A stretch of 64,000 nt of DNA from Minisyncoccota bacterium. Lineage in GTDB: Bacteria > Patescibacteriota > Minisyncoccia > Phycocordibacterales > GWA1-40-21. The translations under genes and the position numbers were made by a program. The stretch is taken from NCBI GenBank assembly GCA_041664585.1, contig JBAYKL010000003.1:49074-113073 (forward strand), read 5' to 3'. The notes under the pieces are model-generated. The model did no database searches, had not been told where the DNA came from, and saw nothing but the letters and a program-made list of their open reading frames with translations. Shown in pieces: positions 28,157 to 62,916 of this stretch. Within the stretch, counting starts at the first letter, position 1. Each line of letters begins with the position of its first letter.

Positions 28157-28177
28157 TTTATTCTATTTTTGTTCTAG

Positions 28178-28584
28178 TGGAGATGCCGAGAATCGAACTC
28201 GGGTGCAAATGATTGAACTCAATGCTTCTACAAAGTCTAGTTGATTTGTTTCCGTCCGAAGACGAATTTAGGTTTGTAAACTATAAAACAACAAAACATT
28301 TACAAACCGATTCTCTATTTTCGTCACTAGACGAGAAGGCTAGTGATATATTCTGAAAATATTGCACCTCATTCTACCTCTCAGAAGTCAGTAGATGAAA
28401 TGTAGCTTAGGCTAAAGCGTAAGCTAAAGTAAGGTCCTTGGCACCAAAAAATGGTGATACAATTCCCGCTACTTTTTGTGTAAAGCTTTTTGCATTTACA
28501 AGTCCTTGGTAGATTTAGGAGTTCACAAGGTTGCTCCACTTTGCGCAAGAGAGAACGGACCAATTGTCTAGGCCGATCATCCCC
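28178..28584 (-). ncRNA. ssrA: tmRNA (transfer-messenger RNA)
   Basis: Minus-strand 5' end GGGGAUGAUCGGCC. 3' end ...GCACCCGAGUUCGAUUCUCGGCAUCUCCA (T-arm GUUCGAUUC plus acceptor, CCA encoded). Internal tag ORF ...GAKDLTLAYALA-UAA. Immediately downstream of smpB. Confidence 0.85.
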
Positions 28585-60934: not shown

Positions 60935-61573
60935 ATGAATCAGATAGACTCATTACATTCTTTAGACCCATTTTGGATATTTCGTGTACTGTATGAGCTT
61001 TTTACTGGTGGTGTAAATGGTTCTGCAAGTTCTGCGGCAAAGATTAGCGTTGGGATATCTGGTTTTATTCACAATATTCCATATCATTTGATAAACTTTT
61101 TTGCTAGATATGTAGTATTTTCTATACTTCTTTCAATTGTTCTCCTAATCTTATCCATAATTTATATTAGAAGATTTACCGCGATAAGAAAGAAAATAAT
61201 GGATAAGATAATACCTACTGAAGGAGAAAAAGAATCTCATGCAGATGAAAAAGAAATGGTAAATCCTAAATGGCAGCTAATTGAGAAGCATATCAATTCA
61301 GATAATCAGGCTGATTGGAAGCTTGCAATTCTTGAGGCAGATATTATGCTCGCAGAACTTTTAGAAAGTATGGCTTTACCAGGAGATAGTATCGGTGAAA
61401 AATTAAAAGCCGTGGAAAAAAGTGATTTTGGATCTCTAGAAGAAGCATGGGAGGGACACAAAATACGAAATGCTATTGCTCACGAAGGTTCAGATTTTTT
61501 GATTACAGAAAGAGAAGCAAAAAGAGTTATCTCTTTGTATCATAAGGTTTTTGATGAGTTTGATATAATCTAA
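60935..61573 (+). CDS. hypothetical membrane protein
   Basis: 212 aa, one TM helix (YVVFSILLSIVLLILSIIYI), charged C-terminal domain. Confidence 0.4.
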   Translation: MNQIDSLHSLDPFWIFRVLYELFTGGVNGSASSAAKISVGISGFIHNIPYHLINFFARYVVFSILLSIVLLILSIIYIRRFTAIRKKIMDKIIPTEGEKESHADEKEMVNPKWQLIEKHINSDNQADWKLAILEADIMLAELLESMALPGDSIGEKLKAVEKSDFGSLEEAWEGHKIRNAIAHEGSDFLITEREAKRVISLYHKVFDEFDII

Positions 61574-61624
61574 GTTCAGCTTGATTTTGTATCTTTTATC
61601 TGGTAATATACTACCTCTAGTATA

Positions 61625-61693
61625 GCGGGGTAGAGTAACGGTAATTCGCAAGGCTCATAACCTTGAGATTTTGGTTCAAATCCAAACCCCGCA
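61625..61693 (+). tRNA. tRNA with CAU anticodon (elongator Met or Ile2/lysidine type), slightly atypical stems
   Basis: GCGGGGU acceptor, anticodon stem CAAGG/CCUUG with loop CUCAUAA, T-loop UUCAAAU, 3' ACCCCGC-A. G1:C72 is paired, so it is not an initiator. Only 69 nt with a tight acceptor/T junction. Confidence 0.6.
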
Positions 61694-61780
61694 ACATTTT
61701 TTAAGAAGGATTTTGCGAAGCAAAATCCTTCTTTTAATTTGTTTTTTCGTTAAAAAATGCTATATTGTCTTTGTTTATAT

Positions 61781-61854
61781 GTCGACGTAGCTCAGACGGT
61801 TAGAGCGTAGCACTCATAAAGCTAAGGTCGGTGGTTCGATTCCACCCGTCGACA
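61781..61854 (+). tRNA. tRNA with CAU anticodon (Met/Ile2 type)
   Basis: GUCGACG acceptor, D-arm GCUCAGACGGUUAGAGC, anticodon loop CUCAUAA, T-arm GGUGGUUCGAUUCCACC, discriminator A; 31:39 is an A·A mismatch. Confidence 0.75.
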
Positions 61855-61940
61855 CAGATTAAGAAAGATATATCTATACGTTTTTTTTAAGTTATTCTTA
61901 ATGCCTAGTGTAATACCCTGTCACGTGTTACAATTGACAG

Positions 61941-62618
61941 ATGCCAATATATAAAAAGGTAAATAAGGATTTTTTTAAAAAATGGACACCTGAGATGGCT
62001 TATATTTTAGGGTTTTTCTCGGCGGATGGGTACATTACTGTGAATAAACGTGGTGCTAGTTTTTGGAGTATACAAATAACAGATAAAGATTTAATTTATA
62101 AAATAAGAGAGTGTGTTGAGGCTGAACATAAAATAGGTTTTAGAAAGGGTTTGGGAAATAATAAGGATTTATACAGATTACAGGTGGGGAGTTTTGAAAT
62201 GTGTGAGGATTTAAACAAATTAGGTTTAAAAGCAAATAAAACTAAAAATCTATTGTTACCAAAAGTCCCCAAGAAATACTTTTCAGATTTTGTCCGTGGA
62301 TATTTTGATGGTGACGGTAATGTTTGGGTTGGTTTTCTCCATAAAAATAGACCCAGACCAGATCTGGTAATTTTTACTGCTTTTACTTCATGTTCTCTTT
62401 GTTTTTTGACTGATTTACGAGATAAATTAAATGCTGCGGGTTTGTCTGGTGGTTCTATTATTAAAAACAAAGCTAATTATTGTCGTCTCTCATTTAGTAC
62501 TAAAAGCACTTTGAAATTATTCAAATATATGTATAATAGTATAGATCTTAAAAAAGATGGTTTGTTCCTGAAGAGGAAAGCAGCTGTTTTTGAGAGATTC
62601 ATCAAAATGCGGGCGTAG
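61941..62618 (+). CDS. double-motif LAGLIDADG homing endonuclease
   Basis: Two LAGLIDADG motifs: AYILGFFSADGYI and FVRGYFDGDGNVW; 225 aa. The stop codon TAG lies inside the acceptor stem of the downstream tRNA. Confidence 0.7.
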   Translation: MPIYKKVNKDFFKKWTPEMAYILGFFSADGYITVNKRGASFWSIQITDKDLIYKIRECVEAEHKIGFRKGLGNNKDLYRLQVGSFEMCEDLNKLGLKANKTKNLLLPKVPKKYFSDFVRGYFDGDGNVWVGFLHKNRPRPDLVIFTAFTSCSLCFLTDLRDKLNAAGLSGGSIIKNKANYCRLSFSTKSTLKLFKYMYNSIDLKKDGLFLKRKAAVFERFIKMRA

Positions 62619-62885
62619 CTCAACGGTAGAGCACTCCCCTGTAGACGTGCAGCTTTTCGTTGAGAGACGAATTGAAACTCTCTGGGATAACGGTGAAGGC
62701 TAAGTTTCATTTAGAAATATGCGAACACCGTGGGAACCCCTAGATTCGCTAGGGGGCGCCGTAGAGACTAGATACCGGAGTACCCTAACTTGTTATGAGA
62801 AGGGTAAAGATATAGTCCACGCCGCTATGAAAATAGTGGAATTAGTGCACGGGAGAGGCCGTGGGGTCAGCACCCATCGCCCGCG
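62609..62885 (+). tRNA. tRNA-Asp (GUC) candidate interrupted by a group I intron in the anticodon loop
   Basis: 5' exon GCGGGCG-UA-GCUCAACGGUAGAGC-A-CUCCC-CUGU (62609-62642). 3' exon CAC-GGGAG-...-CGCCCGC-G (62848-62885). The acceptor and anticodon stems are perfectly complementary, the spliced loop is CUGUCAC and the discriminator is G73. The T-loop (GUCAGCA) is non-canonical. Confidence 0.6.
62643..62847 (+). mobile_element. group I intron (approximately 205 nt, no internal ORF)
   Basis: P7 core GAGACUAGAUACCGG ... AGAUAUAGUCCACGCC closely parallels Tetrahymena CAGACUAAAUGUCGG ... AGAUAUAGUCGGACC. The internal guide GUGCAG can pair with 5' exon CUGU (U·G at the splice site; P1) and 3' exon CAC (P10). 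Terminal omega-G at 62847. Confidence 0.65.
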
Positions 62886-62890
62886 CAATT

Positions 62891-62916
62891 AAAAGCCCCA
62901 TTTGGGGCTTTTTTGC
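62891..62916 (+). terminator. rho-independent terminator after the tRNA cluster
   Basis: aaaagcccca-ttt-ggggctttttt. Confidence 0.7.

Follow-up and report, generated by a model that had tools for sequence, protein, structure and literature searches.

Group I introns inserted between positions 35 and 36 of the tRNA-Asp and tRNA-Asn genes of Patescibacteria were described by Nakagawa et al. (mSystems 2026, preprint 2025; PMC13011429), and these introns self-splice precisely in vitro with no protein. The intron-bearing genes used in the splicing assays, one tRNA-Asp among them, were the sole genomic copies, and the intron was found in 3 of 95 complete Patescibacteria genomes (PMC13011429). In this study, the one systematic survey of these introns so far, endonuclease genes were sought only inside introns longer than 500 bp, it was concluded that most tRNA introns are without endonuclease genes and limited in mobility, and the question was raised of why genome-reduced bacteria retain them (PMC13011429). 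The present analysis deals with an intron of this kind in a 64-kb stretch of contig JBAYKL010000003.1 of a Minisyncoccota bacterium (the whole stretch of 64,000 nucleotides (nt) is called the window), and with a gene for a LAGLIDADG homing endonuclease that lies just outside the intron, on the same tRNA-Asp gene.

Precedents for collaborative homing come from phages, namely cyanophage S-PM2, with F-CphI and the psbA intron, and T4, with mobE and I-TevIII (PMC3984707; PMC2790892). T4 also encodes SegB, a free-standing endonuclease among tRNA genes, whose site holds a conserved tRNA motif and which drives the inheritance of itself and of the neighbouring tRNA genes (PMC2330249). The reading towards which the evidence gathered here tips, if not by much, is that the locus in the window combines a homing endonuclease cassette, free-standing and lodged against tRNA-Asp, with a facultative partner, the intron, which spreads by collaborative (trans) homing.

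The features of the locus are collected in Table 1. When 80 loci were fetched, one genome per species, the endonuclease open reading frame (ORF) was found directly 5' of tRNA-Asp(GTC) in every one of them where the DNA reached far enough. The adjoining tRNA-Asp carried the intron at about 42 loci and was uninterrupted at about 36; the share with the intron among gene-bearing species loci is thus about 52%, and it is the 5' edge of tRNA-Asp, rather than the intron, to which the gene is linked. A tRNA-Met is present upstream of the ORF at nearly all 80 loci. In the window, the last 10 nt of the ORF are positions 1-10 of tRNA-Asp and its TAG stop codon (62616-62618) is formed by U8-A9-G10 of the tRNA. 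Across the species loci, the reading frame enters the tRNA in about nine of every ten intact ORFs, most commonly by exactly 10 nt with the stop at U8-A9-G10, and a few loci use another TAG in the D-arm. The ORF and tRNA-Asp necessarily lie on one transcript, and a terminator scan found no terminator between the neighbouring tRNA-Met and the ORF. With its 205 nt, the intron is too short to hold an endonuclease gene, and the ORF is free-standing.

A preliminary description, which was made from the letters of the window, had already recognized a double-motif LAGLIDADG gene that is free-standing and ends inside the tRNA gene, and the ORF call, the Pfam match and the model of the protein described below all bear this out. 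It had placed the TAG stop inside the acceptor stem, which has to be corrected, as U8-A9-G10 lies just past the 5' strand of that stem. It had also called the arrangement unusual, a view that gives way to that of a conserved cassette with its own promoter module in 80 species.

Table 1. Coordinates of the features at the tRNA-Asp locus, of the paired elements of its intron, of other genes in the window and of second intron matches in relatives (in the coordinates of the respective locus)
Feature	Position	Strand	Basis or remark
tRNA-Met(CAT), first copy	61624-61695
Terminator 3' of first tRNA-Met	61703-61733
tRNA-Met(CAT), second copy, upstream neighbour of ORF	61781-61855	+	ARAGORN; Rfam tRNA, 69 bits
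Spacer, second tRNA-Met to ORF			85 nt
Promoter module of cassette	61903-61934	+	Family consensus and position weight matrix match
LAGLIDADG homing endonuclease ORF, 225 amino acids	61941-62618	+	ORF call; Pfam PF14528
Split tRNA-Asp(GUC), whole	62609-62885	+
tRNA-Asp(GUC) 5' exon, positions 1-35, last base U35	62609-62642	+	In-silico splicing and ARAGORN
Group I intron, 205 nt, ORF-less	62643-62847	+	Rfam RF00028; covariation in 42 homologues
tRNA-Asp 3' exon, C36 to G73, CCA not encoded	62848-62885	+
Intrinsic terminator, end of unit	62891-62912	+	Terminator scan
Intron P1	62639-62643/62648-62652		CUGU+A / U+GCAG
Intron P3	62680-62685/62775-62780
Intron P7, GACUA/UAGUC	62766-62770/62813-62817		Invariant in 42 homologues
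Intron P8	62781-62785/62802-62806
Intron P9, GAAA loop	62822-62828/62833-62839
tmRNA (transfer-messenger RNA) gene	28175-28584
tRNA-Ile, UAU anticodon	31967-32041	-	ARAGORN
ORF of 212 amino acids, between gatA and tRNA cluster	60935-61573	+
Second group I intron match, L057	1959-2203	-	Rfam
Second group I intron match, L034	1785-1989		Rfam
Second group I intron match, L014	1840-2048		Rfam
Second group I intron match, L012	1766-2064		Rfam
Second group I intron match, L030	996-1200	-	Rfam

The promoter module of the cassette has a family consensus, in fixed register upstream of the start codon, of tGGTTAG-tATAATnt-CCTGTCACG-nGa-TATAAT-N6-[A/G]TGCC, and the copy in the window reads GCCTAG-tgtaatac-CCTGTCACG-tgt-TACAAT. 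The string CCTGTCACG corresponds to positions 31-39 of tRNA-Asp, that is, to the uninterrupted junction at which the intron inserts, and it has a single occurrence in the window, where chance alone would give 0.10. The GGTTAG of the module corresponds to D-loop positions 18-22, and the distance of 9 nt from GGTTAG to CTGTCAC is the same as in canonical tRNA-Asp, whose gene pattern is GGTTAGAGC...CCTGTCACG. This tRNA-like consensus equals the -10 box in information content, and the part that resembles the putative homing site sits at a conserved position between the promoter elements. Since 6 nt separate the -10 box from the start codon and a Shine-Dalgarno sequence is absent, a leaderless mRNA is predicted, and the endonuclease message is probably of that kind. 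A position weight matrix (PWM) of the module, run along both strands of the complete 1.63 Mb of fetched sequence, gave matches at 68 of the 80 gene-bearing species loci, once in the window, and at 7 metagenome loci, all of which carry the endonuclease gene; there was no match at gene-less loci or viral loci. Two other origins of the module were considered and rejected. An RNA hairpin that mimics the anticodon arm fails because its pairs do not form consistently and its positions do not follow those of the tRNA. A displaced 5' half of an ancestral tRNA-Asp fails because cassette-free alleles consist of tRNA-Met, a short spacer and tRNA-Asp, and the module is found only with the endonuclease gene.

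The tRNA-Asp lineage of the window was also sampled by its odd T-arm pattern, regardless of gene or intron, which gave 54 alleles. Without the endonuclease gene, there were about 37 loci lacking the intron and 2 with it (L163 and L083); with the gene, there were 10 loci lacking the intron and 5 with it. The intron is therefore enriched beside the gene (5/15 loci with the gene vs. 2/39 without; Fisher p = 0.014), and the tRNA sequences are alike across all four gene/intron classes. The gene-less alleles have tRNA-Met, a spacer of 15-110 nt with its own promoter, and tRNA-Asp. They also have a TATAAT box some 8 nt before G1 of tRNA-Asp (e.g., L093, L199 and L096), so that this tRNA would be transcribed with nearly no 5' leader, which mirrors the leaderless mRNA predicted for the endonuclease.

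An empty site was found in a close relative, L143 (Ga0116157_10014060), whose flanks are 81-93% identical to the window. There, a 54-nt spacer replaces window positions 61857-62607, the intron is absent and the exons are 100% identical. Stubs of the ORF that retain the last 35 or so C-terminal codons are present in L110, L096, L181, L154 and L192, and the intact ORF is missing in 5 of the 80 species loci. Both an empty site and decay products, as are looked for in a homing element, are thus present among the relatives. In the 573-nt spacer of L083, which has the intron and no gene, no endonuclease remnant was detected at E <= 1. As a separate observation, alignment of L143 with window positions 61578-62897 showed that the block of two tRNA-Met genes and tRNA-Asp is inverted relative to the collinear protein genes that flank it, which are 81-84% identical.

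It is quite improbable, given this distribution, that the protein is a domesticated and vertically inherited host factor, such as a regulator of the tRNA operon with the module as its operator, that is no longer mobile. It keeps its position, its length of about 225 amino acids and its motifs in Nomura-, Yonath-, Vogel-, Kaiser-, Taylor-, Zambryski- and Campbellbacteria (53-65% identity), conservation extends to the operator-like module, and close relatives are collinear, with cassette and flanks equally diverged. Yet the distribution is patchy, with an empty site in a close relative, ORF stubs and disrupted ORFs, the gene is missing from most genomes sampled within this tRNA lineage, and the nuclease active site is fully conserved.

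The ORF product matches Pfam LAGLIDADG_3 (PF14528) at 6e-10 and has the motifs LGFFSADG at residue 23 and RGYFDGDG at residue 119, in which the catalytic D29 (GFFxADG) and D125 (RGYFDGDG) are invariant in 71 of 71 full-length relatives. The contig and its relatives are Paceibacteria-type members of the Candidate Phyla Radiation (CPR), and at least 1604 homologues of about 225 amino acids were found, all of the Paceibacteria type where named. An AlphaFold2 model (predicted local distance difference test score, pLDDT, 89.3; predicted template-modelling score, pTM, 0.87) was compared by Foldseek and matched I-AniI at 7.8e-9 (template-modelling (TM) score 0.67), together with I-HjeMI, I-Tsp061I and I-OnuI-type enzymes at E of about 1e-8. 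The model supports the fold of a monomeric double-motif LAGLIDADG homing endonuclease, with tandem alpha-beta-beta-alpha-beta-beta-alpha units that would form a saddle for binding DNA. Outside the CPR, the closest relatives are phage genes, free-standing, with 28-41% identity and no tRNA linkage, and phages were rejected as vectors on account of this low identity and lack of linkage.

A mainly maturase role of the protein, serving either the tRNA-Asp intron or further group I introns in the cell, would fit some of these data. The bifunctional I-AniI and the bI3 maturase are among the top structural matches and there are matches at the sequence level too, the protein and the intron co-occur above expectation, and in some relatives a second group I intron lies next door. 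This role is nevertheless very improbable, as about half of the gene-bearing loci are without the tRNA-Asp intron and both catalytic Asp residues are invariant, whereas pure maturases such as bI3 have lost them. Moreover, introns of the 35/36 class self-splice in vitro free of protein (PMC13011429).

The intron itself is easily overlooked. ARAGORN, intron mode included, reported nothing for the unspliced tRNA-Asp gene, and the exons ligated in silico were called as tRNA-Asp(GTC), base-for-base identical to the intron-less tRNA-Asp genes of the relatives L143 and L189. With RF00028 (Intron_gpI), the region searched alone (401 nt) scored 51.3 bits (E 2.6e-12) against a gathering cut-off of 50 bits, and the Rfam scan of the whole window did not pick it up. 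The scores of these tRNA-Asp introns, at window positions 62618-62839 and in relatives, lie at 50-51 bits, and Rfam matches come and go with the length searched. With scores at the cut-off, routine annotation often misses both the intron and the tRNA-Asp.

An alignment of 42 homologous intron-tRNAs was used for consensus folding by RNAalifold, which recovered P1, P2, P3, P4, P5, P6 and P8, along with the acceptor, D and T stems and an anticodon stem that closes across the intron. Compensatory changes were seen in 36 of the 70 predicted pairs and support P3, P4, P5, P6 and P8. In these homologues, the U.G pair at the splice site (U62642.G62649) and the terminal omega-G (G62847) are invariant, and the P1 pair next to the U.G covaries (A:U in 38 sequences and C:G in 4). 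Hallmarks of a group I intron are therefore present, namely the catalytic core including P7, the U.G splice site and the omega-G, and the insertion lies between positions 35 and 36 of a tRNA-Asp(GUC) in a Patescibacteria genome. Across the intron-bearing loci, the introns are 203-254 nt long.

The preliminary description had proposed a group I intron after U35 of tRNA-Asp(GUC), and the Rfam score and the spliced product agree with it. Of the guide pairing that it suggested, P1 with its U.G stands, and the P10 pairing GUG:CAC does not, since relatives differ in the bases 5' of UGCAG (CG, AC or AT, and TGG in some) and do not conserve it. Its remark that the window holds no second copy of tRNA-Asp was borne out by the tRNA gene scan, which found none within the 64 kb. 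For this gene to yield tRNA-Asp, the intron has to be removed by splicing.

The tRNA-Asp of the window has further peculiarities. Its T-loop is non-canonical, GUCAGCA, in which G54 and G58 replace T54 and A58 (62860-62878), and this loop is widespread, being found in about 60 metagenome loci (L082-L201) independently of the intron and the endonuclease gene. The lineage of the window also has a short D-loop, CAACGGTAGAGC. In several relatives, a second Rfam group I match of 51-81 bits lies just upstream of the endonuclease gene (Table 1), at the place of the intact tRNA-Met(CAT) of the window, and probably represents a split tRNA-Met(CAU).

The intron-tRNA of the window is 81% identical to a published tRNA-Asp example from Paceibacteria (GCA_023898525.1, 845753-846082), which scores 249 bits with the family profile built here, and the Microgenomatia intron that was spliced in vitro aligns with the window sequence over its full length at 63% identity (PMC13011429). 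From the shared 35/36 site and the 81% identity, the intron of the window is a new member of the published class. No published description of the flanking endonuclease gene was found. The intron is thus already known, and what appears to be unreported is the cassette, together with the way it runs into the tRNA and with a promoter module that resembles the putative target.

How the intron and the gene move in relation to each other was followed on a neighbour-joining tree of the endonucleases, on which the intron state requires 15 changes, as opposed to 23.9 for shuffled states (lowest value among 1000 shuffles, 18). This suggests that the intron is partly co-inherited with the gene but labile. 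A match between L003 (1036-2078) and the window (61902-62915), with 77% similarity, runs from the left edge of the module to the terminator. The flanks of L003 are unrelated to the window and its upstream tRNA-Met is absent, and the locus is too distant to be interpreted in terms of transfer. As the match is limited to the module, ORF, tRNA-Asp, intron and terminator, this block behaves as a discrete unit. The state of the D-arm also differs with the intron, a canonical D-arm being found at 40 of 42 intron loci vs. 15 of 36 gene-bearing intron-less loci (p = 1.6e-7), and examples of the variants are GGTTAG-T-AGC, GGTCCAAAGC and GGTTAACA. This pattern is possibly a signal of immunity, in which carriers would depend on having the intron or else a variant site, the target running from the D-loop to the anticodon loop.

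In the proposed mechanism, two separable selfish elements would share one essential gene, tRNA-Asp. The first consists of the promoter module and a probably leaderless ORF, inserted in the short spacer between tRNA-Met and tRNA-Asp and flush against the latter, with no stop codon of its own and termination on U8-A9-G10 of the tRNA. The second is the ORF-less group I intron after U35 of tRNA-Asp(GUC), of the published self-splicing class. The best hypothesis for the enzyme, as read from the sequence, is that it cuts the intron-less tRNA-Asp allele, the intron-less junction being what is copied in the promoter of the ORF; it would recognize uninterrupted tRNA-Asp DNA from the D-loop to the anticodon loop (GGTTAG-N9-CTGTCACG) in cassette-free genomes. 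Repair of the cut from a cassette-bearing donor would copy the cassette, which lies just 30 bp or so away, and with an intron-bearing donor the intron would be copied along, which would amount to collaborative (trans) homing. A carrier of the intron would be protected, as the half-site would be split between CCTGT and CACG. We infer two further controls. Through the target-like sequence among its promoter elements, the gene would be repressed by its own product, like that of I-TevI, and a cut by RNase P at +1 of the tRNA would remove the stop codon of the ORF and so limit the output of the enzyme.

Several points weigh against collaborative homing at this locus. The main difficulty is that, in the lineage of the window, gene-bearing intron-less loci have a tRNA-Asp identical to that of gene-less loci, so that an enzyme cutting this sequence would cut its own hosts. 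It follows that the D-loop variant (CGGTAG for GGTTAG) would be resistant, or the enzyme tightly repressed, or the target elsewhere. The cleavage target proposed above is a guess. Strong self-repression would, in addition, curb the tRNA-Asp downstream, unless that tRNA were supplied by read-through from tRNA-Met. The module shows no covariation with the anticodon stem of its cognate tRNA-Asp, and for this reason, and because of the inconsistent pairing, it is regarded as acting at the level of DNA. On the endonuclease tree, the clustering of the intron state is only moderate, and both the intron-gene counts and the D-arm counts are uncorrected for shared ancestry; the D-arm contrast is drawn only among gene-bearing loci, where shared ancestry may confound it. 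Lastly, between the window and L002 and L004, the cassette and its flanks are collinear and equally diverged, and recent horizontal transfer was rejected because the identity of the cassette there equals that of the flanks.

The difficulty of self-cutting would be absent if the target were the junction between the spacer and the 5' end of tRNA-Asp, which insertion destroys, as in classical free-standing homing with the intron as an independent resident. The junction of cassette and tRNA is precise in about nine tenths of the loci, the gene-bearing intron-less loci share their tRNA with gene-less loci, so that immunity there must stem from the insertion, and the intron is also found without the gene. 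However, cassette-free spacers have little in common apart from A/T-rich bases upstream of G1, which would leave half of a site of about 20 bp unconserved. Such a target also leaves unexplained both the copy of tRNA positions 18-39 in the module, intron-less junction included, and the enrichment of the intron with the endonuclease gene. Homing into the junction is, on this evidence, unlikely.

Collaborative homing into tRNA-Asp can be taken a step further, though tentatively, as the full scheme is possible and we would not expect it to hold in every part: a case of collaborative homing on an essential tRNA gene of a bacterial chromosome, in which the endonuclease would target the uninterrupted tRNA-Asp gene, regulate itself through a copy of that target in its leaderless promoter and have its expression limited by tRNA processing, owing to the borrowed stop codon. 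In the CPR, it would also drive both the spread and retention of the intron as a means of immunity and the unusual D-arm variants. At this locus and some 100 related ones, a dedicated endonuclease gene lies just outside the intron, and this linkage offers a concrete and testable explanation for the origin, spread and persistence of the intron. If it is true, the published inference of low mobility of tRNA introns from missing endonuclease genes would be overturned. The locus would then be a natural "pre-fusion" stage of the route that has been proposed to lead from free-standing endonucleases and introns lacking an ORF to mobile introns, as well as a compact example of an mRNA/tRNA gene overlap, and the family would provide more than 1600 small LAGLIDADG enzymes with a predicted and easily synthesized target. 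The fact that tRNA-Asp is hidden from standard tRNA finders also affects estimates of genome completeness.

Elsewhere in the window, a tmRNA gene is present, and ARAGORN called a tRNA-Ile with a UAU anticodon. Such a tRNA is uncommon in bacteria, where AUA is usually read by a lysidine-modified CAU tRNA. The ORF of 212 amino acids next to the tRNA cluster is conserved at the DNA level in L143, L002 and L004, and a Pfam search with it gave no match.

Compared with known systems, the enzyme shares with I-AniI, I-HjeMI, I-Tsp061I and I-OnuI the double fold, the two LAGLIDADG helices and the two catalytic Asp residues, but these proteins are only 14-20% identical to the ORF product and are intron-encoded in organelle or archaeal genes, whereas the enzyme of the window is free-standing in a bacterial tRNA cluster. 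For I-TevI, Edgell et al. reportedly described in 2004 an autorepression through a homing-site-like sequence that overlaps the promoter from which the enzyme is expressed. That enzyme is of the GIY-YIG type and intron-encoded, and binding and repression in the family of the window are proposed from sequence likeness. The 35/36 introns of Nakagawa et al. are in the same host gene, at the same site after U35 and in the same phylum as the intron of the window, with no mention of a flanking free-standing LAGLIDADG gene, of a tRNA overlap or of a promoter module (PMC13011429). The likeness to SegB is one of lifestyle only, that of a free-standing gene between tRNA genes; SegB is a phage-encoded GIY-YIG enzyme that reads the T-psi-C arm and has no intron or ORF/tRNA overlap, whereas the protein of the window is of the LAGLIDADG type. 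To collaborative homing the likeness would be that the proposed target in the window is the insertion site of the intron, which would then shield its carrier and move together with the endonuclease gene. The phage cases concern a protein gene and Endo VII-like or HNH enzymes, and the locus of the window a bacterial chromosome, a tRNA and a LAGLIDADG enzyme; also unlike the phage cases, the ORF of the window family overlaps the putative target gene, and half of its carriers are intron-less.

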